A DNA stretch of 17,357 bases, taken from the IMG/VR virus record IMGVR_UViG_2663762648_000006, positions 1 through 17,357 of that record; one strand, given 5' to 3'. The notes under the pieces are model-generated. The model saw only the letters and a program-made list of their open reading frames with translations. It had not been told where the DNA came from and made no database searches. The DNA comes from a virus. Its lineage: Duplodnaviria > Heunggongvirae > Uroviricota > Caudoviricetes. Positions 1-15,845 of the stretch are shown piece by piece. The stretch's first letter is position 1, and every line of letters begins with the position of its first letter. The position numbers and the translations under genes are program-made.

Positions 1-868
1 CGGTGTTCTGCACCATGTGCAACGGCACCCGGAACAGACGACAGATTTCTTCAAGCTGAAACTTGCGGGTTTCCAGGAACTGGCTGTCCTCGGCGTTCAG
101 CGCCATCGACTTCCAGTCCAGCCCCATCTCAAGGATCATCGGGCGGTGAGCATTGCCAAGCCCGGTGTGACGCTCCTCAAAATCTTTCTTCAGGCGCTCA
201 TAAGCCTGATCTGACAGCGTCTGCTCTGTACGCAACACACCGGACGTCACCGCACCATTGCTGAACAGTCTGGCCCCGTGCTCTTCGGTCGCTGCCGCCA
301 GCGATATTGCCTCGCGGGCATAGGCGATGGGATTCAGCCCCACCAGACCGTCCAGCGTCAGCGTGCGCACATGCCAGATATCTTCCTGGCTCAGTACATC
401 CGTGGAACCGTCCGGGAATGTGACCTGATAGACCGGCTCCCAGCGACTGTTAAGCTTCGGTACCACACAACCGGGATCGACGGGCAGCAGTTCAGCCACT
501 TCGCCAAATGCTTTCACTTTGTAGGCGTAAAAGTTCCCCCTCAGGCACAGACAGGTGACCACCAGCTCCCAGAACTCCTGCGGCGTCATATAGCCATTGG
601 GATGCGTGGAGATCAGCTTATGCAGACGTTCGCCGGTGGCCCTCTGTTTCAGGCTGCCGTTCAGGTGATACAGATTGCAGGGCAACATCCCGACCGACTC
701 TGCCAGCACTCTGACGCAGGAAAAAACCGCCGTCAGTCGCATGGCCCGCTGACTGCTGATCTGCTTTCCGGTATAGGTGTCGTAAGACAACCCGATGGCA
801 TCCGCCAGCTCTGCTGGCGTGGTCACCGGCACGTCACTTTTTCGTTGAAATAATCCCGAAAAGAACAC
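1..868 (-). CDS. Phage portal protein, HK97-like (partial; C-terminus runs off the window)
   Basis: Minus-strand frame is open from a GTG at 868 to position 1, with GGAGG 6 nt upstream. The translation ([26 protein letters not shown]...LHMVQNT) looks like a portal N-terminus and it sits directly downstream of the large terminase. It is missing from the ORF track only because it is truncated. Confidence 0.8.
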   Translation of the reverse strand, partial: MFFSGLFQRKSDVPVTTPAELADAIGLSYDTYTGKQISSQRAMRLTAVFSCVRVLAESVGMLPCNLYHLNGSLKQRATGERLHKLISTHPNGYMTPQEFWELVVTCLCLRGNFYAYKVKAFGEVAELLPVDPGCVVPKLNSRWEPVYQVTFPDGSTDVLSQEDIWHVRTLTLDGLVGLNPIAYAREAISLAAATEEHGARLFSNGAVTSGVLRTEQTLSDQAYERLKKDFEERHTGLGNAHRPMILEMGLDWKSMALNAEDSQFLETRKFQLEEICRLFRVPLHMVQNT

Positions 869-1061: not shown

Positions 1062-2819
1062 TTAAAGCGAGCGGATGCCCACGCTGATCAGATGTTCAGA
1101 CAGATCCAGCTCCGGTTCACCACCATTGACCAGCATCCGGCTCATTGCTGTAAACATCGCAACAGGGCCGTCGATTTTGGCTTCCAGCGTGGATTTATTC
1201 GGGAAGATATTGTCGTTTTTGTCCGGTTTTACCGTAACGTTAGACATCATCCAGTTCATGACCGGATGATTGCTGTGATGGAAACGCCCGGCATAGACCA
1301 GTGATTCCGTTTCCTTCATGGCCTCTGACAGATTGCGAACCGTCTGCGGAACCTCCACCAGCGGTATCCCTTCTTCAGCCAGTGCCAGGCTGAACTGCAT
1401 CGCGCTCCACGGGTCAAATCCCAGTTCCCTGAGGTTTTCACCACCAATCCATTCCAGTAAGTCACTTTTTATCTGAGCATGATCGATAACATCACCATCC
1501 GTCAGAATCAGCTTATCCATCTCCGCCCACTTCCGGTAAAGTTCTGCCTGCTGCCGCGAGCATCGTTCCAGCCGTCCTTCCGGAAGCCAGAATTTAAAAT
1601 CGGCATGAACATGCCCGTTATCCGTTCGCCAGAGTTTTGCCGCCGCACAGATATCAATCTTATGAGCAAGGTCAACGCCGACCCACATGGGATACGTTTT
1701 CAGCTCATGTCGTGGGGCAATGTATTCGCACTTCTCCCACTTAATCATGTCCATCCAGGCAGACTCTGCTGTTACCCACACATTCATGTGTTTGGTAAAA
1801 AAATTCACCCGCGCAGAGACCTGTTCTTTCGCTTTTTTCGCCAGGCGACGCAGATCATCCCAGCGTTTACAGATGCCCAGGCCGGGATTCGCTTTCTGCC
1901 AGACCGTTTCATCAAACGGATCATCTCCCTCATCGAGGGTGTAAATAATCGCAAAGTAGGAGTCGTCTTTTACCGCGCCCTCCACGTCGCTGTTATAGCC
2001 ACGCAATACCTTGATGGCGTAATCACGCTGCTCGTAACAAATCCCTTCCTTGTTAAACCCTGCCGTGGTGATACCAAATAAAAGGGACTGCAGACGGGCA
2101 CCGGTTGCCGTTTCCAGAACGTCCCACACGTCACGGGTTTTATGTGCATGCAGCTCATCAATAATGGCGCAGTGGATGTTCAGACCATCCAGGTTGTTTG
2201 CATCCGAAGAAAGCGGTTCAAATTTTGATGCGCTCTGCTCCTGGTAAATCGCCAGCTTGTTGAAATCAAACAACCGCCCGAGTGTCGACCGGGCTTTTCT
2301 GACCATATTTTTGGCGTCTTCAAACACGATTCTGGCCTGGTCACGCGTGGTTGCGGCTGAATACACCTCAGCTCCGCCTTCACCATCTGCCCCCGTCATA
2401 TACAGGCCGATACCCGATGACAGAGTTGATTTTGCGTTTTTACGGGCGACTTCGTTGTACGCCGTCCGGAACCGGCGCACCATCACCGGACGTCCGCTGC
2501 CATCGCTGCGCATGACAACTTCCCCGGTCTCTTCATTGACCAGCGGAATGACAAAACCAAAAATATTAATGAGGATAAATACATGCCAGTCCATCAACTC
2601 AATGGGCTGGCCTGCCAGCGCCCCTTTTACATGAGGCACAAATTTGTAGAAATTCAGGATGTGCTGCGCACGGGGTTCACTGAAATAAATCCCCCGCTCT
2701 TCGCCGTACTTCAGATCATCAAGAAAACGCTGGCAGGCCAGGCGGACAAATTCGCCAGCAACAATTTCTCCTGCAACAACACGTTCGGCGTAGCGGATCC
2801 CGTCAGCCACTTTTGCCAT
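1062..2819 (-). CDS. Terminase large subunit
   Basis: 585-aa ORF with ATGA start/stop overlap to the upstream small subunit gene. Size, position and sequence character fit phage TerL; the family call is recollection-based. Confidence 0.93.
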
Positions 2820-3301
2820 CAGTCTCTCGCTTTTAAAAGCTCCGCCAGCGGATCAACATCATCCGGTCCGGCGATATTTACTTTAGCCCGGCTTGCCGGT
2901 GACATACCAAACTCTGCAAGCATTGCCCGGATCCGCTTCCAGGCATCCGCTTTCATTGCCGCCGCGGGGTGCGCCTTAATCAGTACATCACCGCTCTGCG
3001 TTTCCGTGCGGTAGGTATACCCCTCAACATCGAGTGTTTCGCAGTGATGCCGATATTCGGTGTAGGCTTCCACCAGCAGCTCGAGCGCACGCGCATCAAG
3101 CTGAGAAATGATCCCTTCCGCATTCAGCTCTTCCGCCATTCGCCTGAACCAGTACTTCCCCTGAGCCCCTAAATGCTGCGGAATTTTAGGAAGACCTTTT
3201 TCATCCTTTTTAGCGGTTTTTTTGTGGTCTTTAACGGGGCGCTTTGAGGGGTTACCTCGAATCAAATGCAGGCGTGGCGGGGTTTTCGGAGGTCCTGACA
3301 T
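2819..3301 (-). CDS. Terminase small subunit (P27-like)
   Basis: 160 aa with a basic N-terminus, immediately upstream of and overlapping TerL. Confidence 0.8.
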   Translation of the reverse strand: MSGPPKTPPRLHLIRGNPSKRPVKDHKKTAKKDEKGLPKIPQHLGAQGKYWFRRMAEELNAEGIISQLDARALELLVEAYTEYRHHCETLDVEGYTYRTETQSGDVLIKAHPAAAMKADAWKRIRAMLAEFGMSPASRAKVNIAGPDDVDPLAELLKARD

Positions 3302-3449
3302 AATCGGTCTTACCTATCAATCGTTTGTTCACATTTCCAAAAAAAAGTTTTCGAACCTGCGGCGATGTGAGGAAGGGTCAGGCGGCGGTACTGAACAGCC
3401 AGGGTTGCAGAGATTTGACCCGCCCCTCCCCTGCAGATGGGAGCTGTTA

Positions 3450-3800
3450 TCAATTGATGCGTTCGCGCGCTGTTTTTGCTTTATGACAGGGCCAGCACAG
3501 ACTCTGCAGGTTACTGTCTGCATCCGTGCCACCATGAGCTTTCGGAATGATGTGGTCCACAGTTCTGGCTTCAACGGCTCTCCCATTGCGCAGGCAGTTC
3601 TGACACAGATGATTATCACGCTTCAGTATGCGCGCACGTATGGCATCCCATTTCGAGCCATAGCCACGCTGGTGGCGGCTCAGTCCGCGTTGATGCTGTA
3701 CCCATCCTTCGCCACGATGTTTATCGCAGTAACCAGAACTGTCTGTGGTTGTACCTGCACATCCACGCTTACGGCAGGCGCGGGGGGTTAGTGCTGGCAT
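3450..3800 (-). CDS. HNH endonuclease (packaging-associated)
   Basis: 116 aa, cysteine-rich, with an HNH-like motif (DHIIPKAHGG...CWPCH). Its position just upstream of TerS is typical of HK97-like cos phages. Confidence 0.88.
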   Translation of the reverse strand: MPALTPRACRKRGCAGTTTDSSGYCDKHRGEGWVQHQRGLSRHQRGYGSKWDAIRARILKRDNHLCQNCLRNGRAVEARTVDHIIPKAHGGTDADSNLQSLCWPCHKAKTARERIN

Positions 3801-6829: not shown

Positions 6830-6904
<75 letters not shown>

Positions 6905-6907
6905 ATA

Positions 6908-6983
<76 letters not shown>

Positions 6984-6985
6984 AC

Positions 6986-7062
6986 TGGACCGCCACCGGG
7001 GACTCGAACCTCGCACACTCAACTTAAAGGGTTGACGCTCTTTCCTGATGAACTGGTGACGG
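6986..7062 (-). tRNA. Atypical tRNA-like gene (anticodon loop CCTTTAA, nominally UUU; possibly degenerate)
   Basis: 77 nt with encoded CCA and a T-loop TTCGAGT, but C at position 8, C at position 33 and a T-stem mismatch. It lies 1 nt downstream of the tRNA-Ile-like gene. Confidence 0.4.
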
Positions 7063-7063
7063 T

Positions 7064-7139
7064 TGGTGGCCCTTGCTGGATTTGAACCAGCGACCTGGCG
7101 ATTATGAGTCGCTCGCTCTCACCACTGAGCTAAAGGGCC
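7064..7139 (-). tRNA. ileZ: tRNA with CAU anticodon, tRNA-Ile2 (lysidine) type, ileZ-like
   Basis: 76-nt clean cloverleaf: acceptor GGCCCTT/AAGGGCC, anticodon loop CTCATAA, T-arm GCTGG-TTCAAAT-CCAGC, CCA. It closely resembles my recollection of E. coli ileX and of the tRNA carried by Stx-type phages. Confidence 0.8.
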
Positions 7140-10978: not shown

Positions 10979-11191
10979 TTACTCCTCAGGTTCGTAAGCT
11001 GTGAAGACAGCGACCTCCGTCTGGCCGGTTCGGATTCGTACCTCGCAGAGGTCTTTCCTCGTTACCAGTGCCGTCACTATGACGGTTAAACAGATGACGA
11101 TCAGGGCGATTAACATCGCCTTTTGCTGCTTCATAGCCTGCTTCTCCTTGCCTTTCGGCACGTAAGAGGCTAACCTAGATTTGCCGTTCAT
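10979..11191 (-). CDS. hok: Mok/Hok-family type I toxin, copy 2 (identical protein)
   Basis: Translation is identical to copy 1 and lies in the second unit of the tandem duplication. Confidence 0.85.
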   Translation of the reverse strand: MNGKSRLASYVPKGKEKQAMKQQKAMLIALIVICLTVIVTALVTRKDLCEVRIRTGQTEVAVFTAYEPEE

Positions 11192-11387
11192 AGATTGAGC
11201 CTCAGATTAATGTTAAGCGTCTTGCCGGACGCGTAATGTTAACTGGGGCTTTTCTCTATCTGCCTTTGGTGTTCATGCCTGAGGCAGATAGCCTCAAGCA
11301 CCCGCAGCAATTCTACTTAAGTTAGATAAGCTTTTCTATGGTATTCTCTCAGCGTCCCGTAAATACAGTCTCGGCTCATCATTTTTA

Positions 11388-12742: not shown

Positions 12743-12943
12743 TTATTCAGGCGCGCGAATCTGTTCCGCACAATGCAACAATGCTTCTGTCACTTCCTTA
12801 AGCGTTACGGTATCGGCATCATCCAGTCCTGCAACTTTTGCGTGCCTGGCAAACGCCGCGCAAAGGTCGTTAAACGCCACCGCCCGTACATCAGCTAGGA
12901 AAGCGTTAGCAGCAGCCAATTCCTGGTAGTCAATCCTGCTCAC
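12743..12943 (-). CDS. Hypothetical small protein
   Basis: 66-aa ORF whose start overlaps the upstream gene's stop. Confidence 0.45.
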   Translation of the reverse strand: MSRIDYQELAAANAFLADVRAVAFNDLCAAFARHAKVAGLDDADTVTLKEVTEALLHCAEQIRAPE

Positions 12944-13365
12944 TGCGCCGCCTCCTGAAAATTCCCCTGATAGAAAGCCAGTACACGCTGCATAACTTCA
13001 CTATTCCGGCACTCGCGACAGATTATGTTCAGACGCCTGTCATAGCGGCGTATTTCTCCGTCTGGTAACGACCAGATAAGGTCCGGATCAACCACAGATG
13101 TTTTTTTCTTCAGCTTTGCCCTTGAGAGTTTTTTGCGGGCATTTTGCCAGTCCTTACGAGCCTGTTCAGACGGGAATAACCCGTAACCAGAGTTGTATAC
13201 ATCGCCACTGGCAACCAGCTCTCTGGCAAGAACGCTCATCAGATATCTTGTTGCCCCAGTTTTAGCTTCCAGTTGTCGTAACGTCTCGCGCCCACTCTGG
13301 CGTACGAGTTCAACAACCTGCCCTTTAATTTTTTCCCGCTCTTCTTGTGTAAAAACTTTTGCCAC
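12940..13365 (-). CDS. Hypothetical basic protein downstream of the replication initiator (possible replication accessory or DNA-binding protein)
   Basis: 141-aa lysine/arginine-rich ORF at the position P or ren would occupy in lambda. No family recognised. Confidence 0.55.
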   Translation of the reverse strand: MAKVFTQEEREKIKGQVVELVRQSGRETLRQLEAKTGATRYLMSVLARELVASGDVYNSGYGLFPSEQARKDWQNARKKLSRAKLKKKTSVVDPDLIWSLPDGEIRRYDRRLNIICRECRNSEVMQRVLAFYQGNFQEAAQ

Positions 13366-13405: not shown

Positions 13406-14482
13406 TTACCCCCTGAAGCCCGGCGGAATTTCGTTATCCGGTTCAGAAATATGATTCACACAACGCTGGTTGTTCGTGCCGCTTACCGGGAGCAACCAGG
13501 GGTTCTCAAAATTCCGGTCCGGTCCAAAAAACGTCGTCGCTCGCTGAACAAATTCCGTTCCCGTTTTCCCGGTAGCCGCCAAGTATCTTGCGTAACGCCT
13601 CACGCCATCCAGCATGGCCTCTGGTGGCACCCCCTCGCGTAATCTGGCCTTCCAGGCACTGAAAGCGGATTTCTTCGGGTTTGCTCCGGCACGCAACGGG
13701 TACTCCCGCCAGACCTGTTCGAACGCATCCGGATAATCCACTCGTCCCACAGACAGCCCGGTGTTTTCCGGGACTACCCGATCGGCTTTCCGCTGAATGG
13801 CGGAATCGGCTTCAGGCTGCTGCAGTTGGAGTGATTGCTCCGGCCTTGCGGTCATCACCTGCTGCACAGCGCCCGAATCGGCTTTCAGCGCATACGCTGA
13901 ATCGGCTTCCGGTGTCGTGCCTGCTGGCTGACCAGGATTGACGGTCTGAACATCCCCTGCCTGGTTCGTGGCGTTTTTTACGCCATGGACCATAGTGTTT
14001 TGATCTTCTTGATCTGTATCTTTATCTGTATCTTTATCTGTCGTGACTCGTCGTGACATGTGCGTGACATTTCGTGACGCGCCGTGACAATCGCCATTTT
14101 GTTCCCGCTTTCTTTCCCTCTCTCGCTGCGCCCTCTTGCGCTCTGCAGGAGATTTTGCGGTTTGCGAAATATTGCCGTTGTCCTCTTTAAGCACCTGGCG
14201 TTTTTCCCATCCAGTGATTAAATCACCATCAAGTACCCGCCCCTGCATCGTCTGCAAAATTGAATCAATTACCTCTTCTGTCACGTCGAGCGCACTTGCC
14301 AAATCTTCTGTCGTGACATCAATGTGACCTCGCGTGACATTTCGTGACGCGCTCACCAGGAGGTGGATATACACTGCCATCACTGTTGCAATTGGCTGCC
14401 CTGACACCCTGGCAATTGTTCGCCACTTAGGGTCATTTGGCATGTCATGCCATAATCTGAGCCAGGCGTTAGCCATACTCAC
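13406..14482 (-). CDS. Replication initiator (O-like; possibly YdaU/DUF1376-type) containing the origin iterons
   Basis: 358 aa, third gene after the Cro-like and YdaT-like genes as in Rac. Two iteron arrays lie inside the N-terminal half of the gene, as ori-lambda lies inside O. Confidence 0.6.
   Translation of the reverse strand: MSMANAWLRLWHDMPNDPKWRTIARVSGQPIATVMAVYIHLLVSASRNVTRGHIDVTTEDLASALDVTEEVIDSILQTMQGRVLDGDLITGWEKRQVLKEDNGNISQTAKSPAERKRAQRERERKREQNGDCHGASRNVTHMSRRVTTDKDTDKDTDQEDQNTMVHGVKNATNQAGDVQTVNPGQPAGTTPEADSAYALKADSGAVQQVMTARPEQSLQLQQPEADSAIQRKADRVVPENTGLSVGRVDYPDAFEQVWREYPLRAGANPKKSAFSAWKARLREGVPPEAMLDGVRRYARYLAATGKTGTEFVQRATTFFGPDRNFENPWLLPVSGTNNQRCVNHISEPDNEIPPGFRG
14042..14088. 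repeat. Iteron array 1: five CGTGAC repeats at 10-11 bp spacing (putative origin)
   Basis: CGTGAC at 14042, 14052, 14063, 14073 and 14083. A TCTGTATCTTTA tandem repeat lies just upstream (14005-14040). Confidence 0.65.
14280..14348. repeat. Iteron array 2: four to five (C/T)GTGAC repeats including one inverted copy
   Basis: GTCACG at 14280; CGTGAC at 14312, 14333 and 14343; TGTGAC at 14324. The 20-mer CGTGACATTTCGTGACGCGC is shared with array 1. Confidence 0.6.
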
Positions 14483-14547
14483 CTCTTCTGATACCGAATC
14501 TTTTTACTCACGAGTTGCCGGAAGCGATTCGATATGGCTATTGTCAG

Positions 14548-14973
14548 TCAATGTACTGCCACAGCATTTCCTGCCGGGCCACCACGGTTCATCTGATTGA
14601 AACCGGCGATTGCCACTGCGACAAAATCATCAGCGTCTCTCACCAGTCGTTCATGCGTCTCCACCAGTTCCCGAAAATAAGCTGAACTGTGGCTGCGCAT
14701 TCGAGCCACCAGCGGAGGTGGCATTGCCCTTTCGATCGCAGGTAACAACGCCTGAATTTTTTCAACAGCGTCAGGGGTGTCTTTATCCAGCCAACGGAAA
14801 ATCTTTTGGGTGTTGAGATAAAGCGTGTTGTGCTTGCTGTCGTTATGCAGAACCGGAAACGTCATTCCCAGTTCGAAATAAACCCTGGTTATTTCAGCTG
14901 CCGGAACTTTTTCACCGTCCGGATGCGCCCAGGCTTTCATCGCCATGCGGATGTGTTCATGCTTGATTTTCAT
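14548..14973 (-). CDS. ydaT: YdaT-like protein (CII-position regulator of Rac-type prophages)
   Basis: 141 aa starting MKIKHEHI, as I recall for Rac YdaT; it directly follows the Cro-like gene. Confidence 0.7.
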   Translation of the reverse strand: MKIKHEHIRMAMKAWAHPDGEKVPAAEITRVYFELGMTFPVLHNDSKHNTLYLNTQKIFRWLDKDTPDAVEKIQALLPAIERAMPPPLVARMRSHSSAYFRELVETHERLVRDADDFVAVAIAGFNQMNRGGPAGNAVAVH

Positions 14974-15233
14974 GAATCAACCCCCGCCGATGGTTGTGTG
15001 TTAGCCTGAAACTCAGCAGGCAAGCCGTCAGTTGGGTTGGGGTAGGTTTTACTGTCAATCTCATGTGGGGTCACCACCCATCCCGTTGCTTCACACCAAC
15101 GTAATATTTTTTCTCCTGTAAGTTTTGCACGCCCCGTTATAACGTGGCTGACCATCCCTTGGGATGCGCCAACAATCTCAGCAAATGAACTCTGGGTTAT
15201 ATGAAAATGATGCAAATATTCTCCAAGATTCAT
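14970..15233 (-). CDS. Cro/YdaS-like HTH regulator
   Basis: 87 aa from the ATG at 15233 (the ORF extends to a TTG at 15260). HTH-like segment SQGMVSHVITGRAKL. Divergent from the repressor gene. Confidence 0.7.
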   Translation of the reverse strand: MNLGEYLHHFHITQSSFAEIVGASQGMVSHVITGRAKLTGEKILRWCEATGWVVTPHEIDSKTYPNPTDGLPAEFQANTQPSAGVDS

Positions 15234-15260
15234 AATCCGCCCTATGTGATGTGTTACCAA

Positions 15261-15344
15261 TGCATAATTAATAGCACTGTTATTTTTAAAAGTAAATAGT
15301 GATACTATTTCAAAGTGATTAGCAATCTTATTAGAATTGGATGT
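15261..15344. promoter_or_regulatory. Immunity-region intergenic spacer with divergent promoters and operator-like repeats
   Basis: 84-bp AT-rich spacer between divergent HTH genes, with repeated AGTGAT/AGCACT half-site-like motifs. Confidence 0.45.
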
Positions 15345-15845
15345 ATGAAAAGAAAATCATTGTCAGACACCGACCTCAACGCCGCCAGAAGACTGAAAGA
15401 AATCTGGATGGCAAAGAAATCTCAGTTGGGATTGACTCAGGAACGTGCGGCGGAAATTATGGGGTTTTCAACACAAGGGGCGGTAAGTCACTACCTAAAT
15501 GGTCAAACCCCACTAAACCTTGAGGCTGTTCTAAAGTTTGCTGGCTTACTGAAAGTTCCCCCTGAGTCAATCAGGCCAGACATGGTAGATTTGCTGCAAA
15601 TTGCAAGGATGTATTGTCGAGAACCACAGCAAGATAACATAGTCGCATTACCAGCAGACACAGAACAAACAGAGGATGAACTACCGTTTGCCGTAGAGCC
15701 GATGGAACGAGATTTAATCCATACGTTCAGAGCTTTTCCGAAAGAAGATCAAGAACACATGCTTCAGGAGATGAAAGATAAAAAAGAATCAATGGATCGT
15801 ACGGTTGCGCGGTGGTTAGCTGCACAAAAAGGCCGTCGCGCCTAA
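15345..15845 (+). CDS. Prophage repressor, HTH type (RacR/CI-like, apparently without an S24 peptidase domain)
   Basis: 166 aa from the ATG at 15345. HTH segment LTQERAAEIMGFSTQGAVSHYLNGQ; the C-terminus is acidic and shows no Ser/Lys peptidase motif. Confidence 0.7.
   Translation: MKRKSLSDTDLNAARRLKEIWMAKKSQLGLTQERAAEIMGFSTQGAVSHYLNGQTPLNLEAVLKFAGLLKVPPESIRPDMVDLLQIARMYCREPQQDNIVALPADTEQTEDELPFAVEPMERDLIHTFRAFPKEDQEHMLQEMKDKKESMDRTVARWLAAQKGRRA

Follow-up and report, generated by a model that had tools for sequence, protein, structure and literature searches.

In bacteriophage lambda, a single cluster of four iterons of ~19 bp, each an inverted repeat, lies in the middle of the initiator gene, and the two of these that adjoin the A/T-rich region are enough for ori-lambda plasmids to replicate in vitro (PMC7466680). 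The N-terminal part of the O protein binds DNA and its C-terminal part recruits the helicase machinery; Stx phages differ from lambda in iteron number, and the extra iterons add residues to O (PMC7466680). In phage SPP1, oriL is located inside gene 38, where the repeats bound by G38P (AB boxes) adjoin an A/T-rich DUE, and G38P is without an AAA+ domain (PMC5737612). The fold of RepA_N initiators binds iterons placed centrally in their own gene, the origin encoding a dispensable linker (PMC5703833, PMC7145576), the iterons in these systems being in most cases longer, semi-palindromic, and grouped around a poly-A tract (PMC7145576). Here we describe two arrays of short phased repeats within the initiator gene of a prophage and compare them with these systems.

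The window analyzed, the whole stretch of 17,357 nt, comes from an E. coli prophage of a common type, and the gene under study is its replication initiator (Table 1). The program-made open reading frame of this gene spans 13406-14482 (-) and opens at GTG 14482; read from ATG 14476, the 356-aa protein has the length of the annotated CDS in phage Tritos. The protein matched phrog_3729 'replication initiation protein' (E = 2e-254), its NCBI cluster P0001 (5,786 members) is named 'phage replisome organizer', and the whole protein gave no Pfam family at E <= 0.01. In sequence records it goes only under the names 'hypothetical protein', 'replisome organizer' or, in loose usage, 'protein O'. It would belong to an early rightward-type operon (Cro-like, cII/YdaT-like, initiator), with HTH regulators encoded immediately upstream, and the next gene (12940-13365) is DUF977/Ren-like. 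No P-like or DnaC-like loader gene was found downstream of the initiator in the window; a DnaC/IstB-like gene is present downstream in some relatives. Of 5,426 complete E. coli genomes, 2,237 carried the module, some of them in multiple copies (up to four per genome), and it also occurred in prophages of gamma-, beta- and alphaproteobacteria. Searches of the open-access literature gave nothing relevant on the repeats of this family or on GTCACG origins, and no report of experimental binding or origin activity for the family.

Table 1. Features of the initiator gene and of its repeat region, in window coordinates
Feature	Position	Strand	Details
Replication initiator / 'phage replisome organizer' gene	13406..14476	-	ORF list, translation; 356 aa; likely start ATG 14476
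N-terminal helical/winged-helix domain, proposed repeat-binding domain (aa 1-85)	14222..14476	-	
Array A (promoter-proximal; 'second array' of the first-pass annotation)	14312..14348	-	Four direct cores, coding strand
Inverted core copy	14280..14285	+ (GTCACG)	CGTGAC on coding strand, gene nt 192; 32 bp after array A
Conserved basic helix aa 110-126 (AERKRAQRERERKRE)	14099..14149	-	Helix in structure model; between winged helix and array B
Array B ('array 1' of the first-pass annotation)	14042..14088	-	Five direct GTCACG cores, gene nt 389, 399, 409, 420, 430
A/T-rich tract, proposed DNA unwinding element	14000..14041	-	Directly after array B; encodes DKDTDKDTDQED
Palindrome, 13-bp arms (TGGTTCGTGGCGT-N5-ACGCCATGGACCA)	13962..13992	.	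Just beyond A/T tract; start of C-terminal module; encodes MVHGVKNAT
C-terminal helical domain, exchangeable module (aa 245-332)	13481..13744	-	pLDDT 80-96 for nearly all of residues 250-330
C-terminal tail RCVNHISEPDNEIPPGFRG	13409..13471	-	Nearly identical to extreme C-terminus of E. coli DnaT

The hexamer CGTGAC (+) was located exactly at 14042, 14052, 14063, 14073, and 14083 (spacing 10, 11, 10, and 10 bp), the same five positions at helical-turn spacing that the first-pass annotation had given. Exact copies were also present at 14312, 14333, and 14343, with an inverted copy at 14280, in agreement with its second array at 14280-14348, and the degenerate copy TGTGAC at 14323 fills the gap in the 14312-14348 array. 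Both arrays lie, as it had stated, inside the minus-strand ORF of the initiator. The segment 14042-14348 holds nine of the window's 15 CGTGAC sites, plus the degenerate copy, in two arrays with 10-11 bp spacing. In the whole window, 15 sites were observed against 7.0 +/- 2.75 expected (15 reached in 2 of 200 shuffles), and in the 310-bp region nine were observed against 0.11 expected from the outside density (Poisson P = 5e-15). When 600-bp segments were slid along the window, more than one 10/11-bp-phased hexamer pair appeared only where the segment covered the array region. The arrays are 39-nt direct repeats of each other (72% identical), 260 bp apart from start to start with a gap of 223 bp between the direct arrays, so that the annotated distance of about 240 bp was roughly right. 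A test for constant helical phasing of the two arrays relative to each other gave R = 0.44 at 10.0 bp and R = 0.23 (p = 0.24) at 10.5 bp, values that depend on the period and are confounded by shared ancestry. Rfam, promoter, and terminator scans of the region gave nothing above chance. A promoter-like match at 14064-14091 consists of the repeats themselves.

We next examined how the cores are read as codons. Array A (GTCACG at gene nt 129, 139, and 160; GTCACA at nt 149) encodes aa 43-55 (A-SR-N-VT-R-GH-ID-VT), which in the structure model form the end of helix 3 and a low-confidence loop (residues 48-52). The inverted copy encodes D-V-T (aa 64-66), and array B encodes aa 130-145 (CH-GA-SR-N-VT-HM-SR-R-VT) in a predicted disordered linker, pLDDT being <50 over residues 128-243, the segment with array B and the A/T tract. 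The cores occupy all three codon phases, giving SR, VT, and GH/CH (phases 2, 3, 1, 3, and 1 in array B), and the repeat is therefore a feature of the DNA and not of the peptide. Among 21 sequences, each from a different species, normalized codon entropy was 0.06 at the 11 core codons and 0.82 at 48 other codons for conserved residues (Mann-Whitney p = 3e-7). Array A codons 44, 47-48, 50-51, and 54-55 each used a single codon in 20-21 of the 21 sequences, and V65 of the inverted copy was GTG in 19 of 19. Core synonymous sites were thus invariant across the 21 species in a gene that is otherwise saturated, and the residues between cores varied freely. These patterns show that the repeats are conserved as DNA signals, under selection independent of the protein code. 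Because the arrays sit where nearly every residue is tolerated, in a loop and in a disordered linker, the DNA signal dictates the amino acids there, a clear example of such an effect in tolerant protein segments.

The G+C content of the gene reaches its minimum, 0.275, at 14000-14039, immediately beside array B. The tandem repeat annotated there as encoding a linker was recovered by TRF as the 12-mer TCTTTATCTGTA at 14007-14041 (2.9 copies, 95% matches), which encodes TTDKDTDKDTDQ on the minus strand. Codons of the D/K tract were GAT or AAA in 133 of 145 cases, compared with about 50% upstream. Furthermore, the 40 nt after array B were richer in A/T than the gene in 46 of 47 relatives (0.66 versus 0.45), including those in GC-rich hosts.

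The comparative set comprised ~75-80 homologous genes from diverse genomes, scanned on the basis of alignments with one genome per species. A scan of viral contigs with the N-terminal 155 aa had no comparative power, all 80 of the 80 loci returned being E. coli prophages 99-100% identical. The order of array A (nt ~130-190), array B (nt ~340-460), and an A/T tract was seen in most of the ~75 homologues from gamma-, beta-, and alphaproteobacteria. A hexamer with at least three phased pairs was detected in 50 of 76 homologous gene segments and in 0 of 253 flanking control segments; the other 26 gene segments had fewer than three phased pairs under the exact-match criterion (weak or no phased hexamer). 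Copy number varied in frame, from 4 to 6 in array A and from 3 to 7 in array B, and relatives had 2-7 array B copies. The core differed with the lineage of the N-terminal domain (GTCACG, GTAACG, GTGACG, GCAACG, CGAACG(C), and TAACGCA), with ACG common to all. Distant lineages retained the architecture under a different core, so that the residues encoded there were also different (A-T or E-R in place of V-T). The inverted copy was found at its same position in the genes of Aeromonas and Pseudomonas phages as well as in many genomic relatives, and in Ralstonia phage Firinga array A was followed by inverted copies of that phage's own core (CGTTGC). The two large core classes, GTCACG and CGAACG, were told apart only by residue 48 (encoded by the repeat), residue 109, and an indel spanning 100-108, a separation that is confounded by phylogeny.

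The N-terminal domain looks like a winged helix of the DnaD-NTD type, and its putative fold is closest to DnaD-NTD and RepA_N initiators. In the basic helix that follows it, R113, R118, E119, and R120 were invariant in the family alignment, and the sole non-repeat columns dividing GTCACG- from CGAACG-type proteins (100-109) lie just before it; speculatively, this helix may provide an additional DNA contact. The C-terminal domain matched phrog_1701 'DnaD-like helicase loader' (E = 2e-62), shared 82% DNA identity with Stx phages that have an unrelated N-terminal module, and was absent from Aeromonas and Pseudomonas relatives. On that other N-terminal module the same C-terminal half occurred without GTCACG. 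GTCACG arrays accompanied only the N-terminal domain, and the C-terminal domain and neighboring genes were swapped freely: the gene downstream of GTCACG-type initiators was DUF977 in E. coli, DnaC-like in Aeromonas, and a 1.8-kb gene annotated 'P' in Pseudomonas. The C-terminal tail matched PDB entries 6aep, 2ru8, and 9zbt_D (residues 159-179) end to end by phmmer (E = 6e-5 to 1e-3), and only the tail matched the NCBIfam DnaT model; the contact partner of the extreme DnaT tail is not given in the 2026 preprimosome paper.

We then compared the locus with the described systems. As in ori-lambda, the repeats lie inside the initiator's own gene, an A/T-rich region comes after them, and the iteron number is variable; the earlier statement that the arrangement mirrors ori-lambda holds to this extent. 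By contrast, lambda has its four ~19-bp inverted-repeat iterons in one cluster (four to six being expected of the lambda type), whereas here asymmetric cores of 6-7 bp in units of 10-11 bp form two arrays, one of them within the region coding for the DNA-binding domain. In place of the helicase-loader gene (P or DnaC-like) expected immediately downstream of a lambda-type initiator, the present locus has a DUF977/Ren-like gene. The label 'O-like' likewise fits function and architecture but not homology: there was no match to Pfam Phage_rep_O, the N-terminal 128 aa at E <= 10 matched only PF09681 and HTH_Crp_2, and the N-terminal domain looks DnaD-NTD-like. The likeness to SPP1 lies in the embedding of oriL in gene 38 and in the NCBI name of the present protein. 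SPP1 differs in encoding its own loader and helicase (G39P and G40P) beside gene 38, and no homology to G38P was detected (hhalign probability 0.1% for the family profile against G38P; PF09524 is present in G38P and absent here). With RepA_N systems (pSK41, pTZ2162, and Vibrio PLE RepA), the likeness is architectural only, in that repeats inside the rep gene encode a linker and the C-terminal domain is variable. RepA_N systems belong to plasmids or satellites and the present one to a lambdoid prophage; for them no second array within the sequence coding for the NTD has been described, and the present protein gave no PF06970 match even at E <= 10.

The PF09681 match ran end to end, residues 5-123 aligning to profile positions 1-119 of 121, with a score of 16.6 bits against a gathering threshold of 23.3; E <= 0.01 was reached in only 1 of 40 diverse members, and membership in the family was not accepted. 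The PF09681 domain, from phages of Firmicutes, has the same size and place in the protein, and weak PHROG matches to 'replisome organizer' families were seen. The N-terminal domain of the initiator is at best a remote relative of PF09681. The best reading by analogy is that the locus corresponds in function to origins known from within other initiator genes: ori-lambda (gene O), SPP1 oriL (gene 38), and that of pSK41 (rep).

The arrays are very probably iterons bound by the protein of the same gene, which with the adjacent A/T tract would constitute the prophage's origin of theta replication. We infer the origin activity of the arrays and A/T tract, as well as initiator binding, looping, the melting site, and helicase recruitment. 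The first-pass annotation had proposed that initiator-binding iterons mark the origin, and every computable prediction of that proposal was borne out, including DNA-level selection and the A/T tract after array B. Its suggestion of a distinct initiator specificity also gained support, since the core changes with N-terminal-domain lineage and remains linked to this domain through exchanges of the C-terminal domain and of the flanking genes. Upon induction, transcription of the early operon would supply the initiator, whose putative winged helix, perhaps aided by the basic helix, would recognize the 6-7 bp core GTCACG; its recurrence every 10-11 bp would set 4-5 protomers on one helix face per array. 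The two arrays (~230-260 bp apart) and the inverted copy could assemble into a single nucleoprotein complex comparable to the lambda O-some, and strain together with negative supercoiling would melt the A/T-rich tract directly 3' of array B. The replicative helicase would be brought in by the exchangeable C-terminal domain. Since no phage loader gene is adjacent and the tail is DnaT-like, the initiator probably recruits host primosome proteins or DnaB-DnaC.

A more specific proposal, which we consider unlikely, is a distinct origin design with three joint elements. Both phased-hexamer arrays, about 25 turns apart, would be required and bridged by an initiator filament or loop; the promoter-proximal array, written in the code of the DNA-binding domain, would make protein and site inseparable by recombination, the first three core bases (GTC, GTA, GTG, GCA, or CGA, then ACG) serving a DnaD-like winged helix as a simple code of specificity that can evolve; and the DnaT-mimicking tail would plug into the host restart primosome, bypassing a phage helicase loader. 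It also seems improbable that the initiator-binding repeats are chiefly regulatory (autorepression, transcription roadblock, or copy-number/incompatibility 'handcuffing') and that unwinding occurs elsewhere. This would suit array A in particular, which begins only ~130 nt into the gene without an adjoining A/T-rich tract; because two A/T-adjacent iterons suffice in lambda, array A may be regulatory and not part of the firing origin. With up to four module copies in one E. coli genome, titration or cross-talk is also plausible. However, the A/T tract always comes after array B and codon bias preserves it even where the host is GC-rich, a signature of an unwinding element that an operator would not need, and regulatory and origin roles are not mutually exclusive.

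It is very improbable that the repeats are recognized by another protein, for a process such as transcription control or exclusion, whether that protein comes from the host or is a neighboring phage product such as the cII/YdaT-like, Cro-like, or DUF977/Ren-like one. HTH regulators are indeed encoded next to the gene, and the binding of the initiator to the repeats is itself something we infer, but the GTCACG loci of E. coli, Aeromonas, and Pseudomonas phages differ in their flanking genes and have only the N-terminal domain in common. Moreover, related enterobacterial hosts differ in core type (GTCACG, GTAACG, and TAACGCA), which argues against a conserved host factor. We find it hardly credible that the repeats are a by-product of a needed peptide motif (ASRNVT...VT) or a neutral relic of slippage or duplication. 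The 39-nt duplicate and the similar peptides encoded by the arrays (SASRNVTRGH..DVTTED and GASRNVTHMSRRVTTDKD) could be taken that way, but the hexamer yields different residues in its three frames, synonymous core sites are invariant where the gene is otherwise saturated, inter-core residues vary, distant lineages replace core and encoded residues within a constant architecture, and the array segments are predicted to be loop or disordered.

Read as iterons of the initiator, the arrays point to an ori and an initiator that can be tested as a pair. The prophages concerned are a major enterobacterial class, with relatives found in O157 and Stx-phage backgrounds. Natural initiator variants with different 6-bp cores provide a route to dissecting how this winged-helix family reads DNA, and core variants could predict replication incompatibility or cross-activation between co-resident prophages. 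In concept, the arrangement well known from lambda, SPP1, and pSK41 would be extended and nothing overturned; here it occurs in an experimentally unstudied family.

Finally, ori-lambda also has a palindrome beyond its A/T-rich region, and the present locus has one at 13962-13992. This palindrome was kept in two relatives, L166, which has a different N-terminal module, and L168, whose protein is 55% identical, with one arm pair altered on both sides, and it may tentatively be counted as part of the origin. A terminator-like match at 13962-13992 is the palindrome itself.

The first-pass annotation had placed two arrays of CGTGAC (GTCACG on the coding strand) inside the replication initiator gene, and both were recovered. 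Five copies start exactly at 14042, 14052, 14063, 14073, and 14083 (+ strand; array B), and the second group has copies at 14312, 14333, and 14343 (array A) and, in inverted orientation, at 14280. The gap in array A is filled at 14323 by a copy with one mismatch, and the two arrays also constitute a direct repeat of 39 nt with starts 260 bp apart. The tandem 12-mer beside array B encodes the linker DKDTDKDTD, as had been proposed. CGTGAC occurs 15 times in the window against 7.0 ± 2.75 expected; nine sites fall inside 310 bp, where the density elsewhere predicts 0.11 (Poisson P = 5e-15). When the window was scanned in sliding segments, only those covering this repeat region had a hexamer with two or more 10/11-bp-phased pairs. 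Array B is followed on its 3′ side directly by an A/T tract and then by a palindrome with 13-bp arms.

The setting of the gene is that of a lambdoid immunity and replication region, with no helicase-loader gene after the initiator in the window. The initiator protein, named "phage replisome organizer" at NCBI, matched phrog_3729 ("replication initiation protein," E = 2e-254), and a Pfam search with it gave no family above threshold. PF09681 (N-terminal phage replisome organiser) matched end to end but sub-threshold and was found in 1 of 40 members. A profile comparison for homology to SPP1 G38P was negative.

Features of the initiator gene and its neighborhood (window positions unless stated)
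Feature	Position	Strand	Remarks
Initiator gene	13406-14476	-	356 aa from ATG, as annotated in phage Tritos
Array A	gene nt 129-165		GTCACG on coding strand, four direct copies
Inverted core copy	gene nt 192		after array A
Array B	gene nt 389-435		GTCACG on coding strand, five copies
Tandem 12-mer TCTTTATCTGTA	14007-14041		G+C minimum of initiator gene, 0.275
Palindrome GGTCCATGGCG-A5-6-CGCCAC-GAACC	13962-13992		junction of A/T tract and C-terminal module
CI-like repressor	15315-15845	+	
Cro-like gene	14970-15260	-	
cII/YdaT-like gene	14548-14973	-	
DUF977/Ren-like gene	12940-13365	-	downstream of initiator
N-terminal helical domain with beta-hairpin	residues 1-85		pLDDT 70-87 over most of 11-80, moderately confident
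Conserved basic helix	residues 110-126		AlphaFold2 model
Long disordered linker	residues 128-243		AlphaFold2 model
C-terminal helical domain	residues 245-332		very confident in AlphaFold2 model

Repeats within a coding sequence could be a DNA signal or a feature of the protein. The core hexamer is read in three codon phases, giving S-R, V-T, or G/C-H. Twenty-one GTCACG-type genes of different species were aligned by codon (E. coli, Aeromonas and Pseudomonas phages, Aquitalea, Rahnella, Serratia, Bordetella, Acidovorax, Gilvimarinus, Chromobacterium, and others). Normalized codon entropy was 0.06 in the cores (11 columns) compared with 0.82 at conserved residues outside the arrays (48 columns; Mann-Whitney p = 3e-7). 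Synonymous positions of conserved residues were approximately randomized outside the arrays, whereas those inside the cores were frozen: GTC-ACG was invariant at codons 47-48 and 54-55, GGT-CAC at 50-51, and TCA at 134 (21/21 each). The D/K-rich tract after array B used GAT/AAA in 133 of 145 codons, compared with ~50% upstream, which indicates selection for A/T richness, not for the peptide. The three codon phases, the frozen synonymous sites, and this bias together settle the question in favor of a DNA signal.

The same architecture was examined in ~85 diverse loci, found by tblastn in phage genomes and by scanning one genome per species with an alignment; each gene was scored by its best 10/11-bp-phased hexamer in the first 600 nt. 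At least three phased pairs were present in 50/76 homologous genes and in 0/253 flanking control segments. Array positions were constant (nt ~130-190 and ~340-460), and copy number changed in frame. Array B has three copies in an Aeromonas phage and four in a Pseudomonas phage. Within E. coli, array A has four or six copies and array B five or 6-7, with protein lengths of 302-374 aa (alignment A2); the variant locus L167, encoding P0003, carries 6+1 and 6-7 copies, respectively (gene nt 120-500). The 40 nt after array B were more A/T-rich than the gene in 46/47 loci (0.66 vs 0.45), even where the gene was 60-65% G+C.

The core sequence and the lineage of the N-terminal domain vary together. 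Many gamma- and betaproteobacteria carry GTCACG; Pantoea, Enterobacter, Marinobacter, and Sphingomonas have GTAACG; Paraburkholderia and Caballeronia have GTGACG; and Cupriavidus, Burkholderia, and Ralstonia phage Firinga, the last with inverted copies after array A, have GCAACG. A Manatee Spring phage and many beta- and alphaproteobacteria use CGAACG(C), and one enterobacterial metagenomic contig has TAACGCA. ACG after a variable triplet is common to all, and the encoded residues follow the core, for example from V-T to A-T or E-R. A nine-residue segment, GNxxxxAKS (residues 100-109, window ~14150-14179), directly precedes the conserved basic helix in GTCACG- and GCAACG-type proteins and is missing from 15/15 CGAACG-type proteins (alignment A3); it may help determine specificity or simply mark the lineage.

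Across GTCACG-type loci, only one partner of the arrays stayed constant: the first ~130 residues of the protein encoded by the gene itself. E. coli, Aeromonas, and Pseudomonas proteins have unrelated C-terminal halves, and the downstream genes differ (DUF977, a DnaC-like loader, and a 1.8-kb gene annotated "P," respectively). In Shigella/Stx phage 75/02, the window's C-terminal half recurs at 82% DNA identity, joined to an unrelated N-terminal module, and the gene contains no GTCACG arrays. This modular pattern is expected if the N-terminal domain binds the origin and the C-terminal domain adapts to the helicase machinery. The AlphaFold2 model used 27 sequences (mean pLDDT 61.7). In it, the codons of array A fall at the end of helix 3 and in a loop of low confidence (48-52), those of the inverted copy in the turn that joins helices 56-63 and 67-77, and those of array B and the A/T tract in the disordered linker. 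The model would thus place the DNA signals where residue identity should matter least.

The first-pass annotation had described an ori-lambda-like origin in an O-like initiator gene. Strong comparative evidence supports an origin functionally analogous to ori-lambda, but membership of the lambda O family, like that of the G38P and RepA_N families, was ruled out by sequence. Ori-lambda in gene O (PMC7466680), SPP1 oriL in gene 38 (PMC5737612), and pSK41-type RepA_N plasmids share with the design proposed for the window an origin within the initiator gene, initiator-binding repeats, an adjoining A/T-rich element, an N-terminal binding domain, and an exchangeable C-terminal domain. Closest in architecture and fold are the pSK41-type plasmids, in which four Rep boxes in the middle of rep are bound by a DnaD-like N-terminal domain, and the segment encoded by the origin is a dispensable linker (PMC5703833; PMC7145576). 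Unlike all three, the window has very short asymmetric cores at every helical turn and two arrays, one within the coding sequence of the putative binding domain. The putative repeat origin is an uncharacterized example of a well-known kind; no description of GTCACG repeats was found in open-access papers. In the proposed mechanism, the N-terminal winged helix would bind the phased cores, one site per turn aligning protomers on one DNA face at each array. Both arrays and the inverted site would be drawn into one complex, which with supercoiling would melt the adjacent A/T tract, and the C-terminal domain would deliver the helicase. Array A may instead be an auxiliary or regulatory site outside the minimal origin.

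The last 21 initiator residues, RCVNHISEPDNEIPPGFRG (aa 336-356; 13409-13471, minus strand), are nearly the same as the C-terminal end of E. coli DnaT, matching end to end (PDB 9zbt_D, 2ru8, 6aep), and the Aeromonas relative terminates in KPPGFN. With the missing loader gene, this tail suggests that the host primosome or DnaB-DnaC is recruited by mimicry of a replication-restart protein. No partner of the tail was found in a 2026 preprimosome paper.

Seven sequenced E. coli phages, Tritos and Evi among them, carry near-identical DNA, and the putative origin region (13900-14500) is present in 2,237 of 5,426 complete E. coli genomes, at up to four places per genome; no origin or repeat feature is listed in the annotation of the matches examined. 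If prophages in one cell carry identical iterons and initiators, each could titrate or cross-activate the other. The system matters for this prevalence, for a clean series of naturally occurring specificity variants, and for the DnaT-tail lead. In Pseudomonas phage phi1 (KT887557.1), an initiator-homologue ORF with two GTCACG arrays at 2393-3400 has no CDS in the GenBank record, and records of related Pseudomonas phages divide it into two "hypothetical proteins."

The palindrome is kept in two distant relatives (phage 75/02 and a locus whose protein is 55% identical), with both sides of one arm pair altered (GGTCC/GGACC vs GGTTC/GAACC). Scored on the antisense strand, it also registers as a terminator-like hairpin. 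In the phage 75/02 gene (2501-3589, minus strand in its locus), AAGGGGCT stands at gene nt 185 and again at 196, and its inverse, AGCCCCTT, ~255 bp away at nt 441 and 452; after these come a (GAACAG)n tract, rich in A, and this palindrome. This may be a second origin type on the same plan. Elsewhere in the window, a sok antitoxin RNA (11129-11303, minus strand; Rfam, 111.7 bits) points to a hok/sok-type toxin-antitoxin locus in the prophage, and HokD toxin is annotated at the corresponding place in phage Tritos. Three consecutive tRNA genes lie at 6833-7139 (minus strand; Rfam tRNA, 65-73 bits); lambdoid and Stx-type prophages commonly carry such genes in their late regions.
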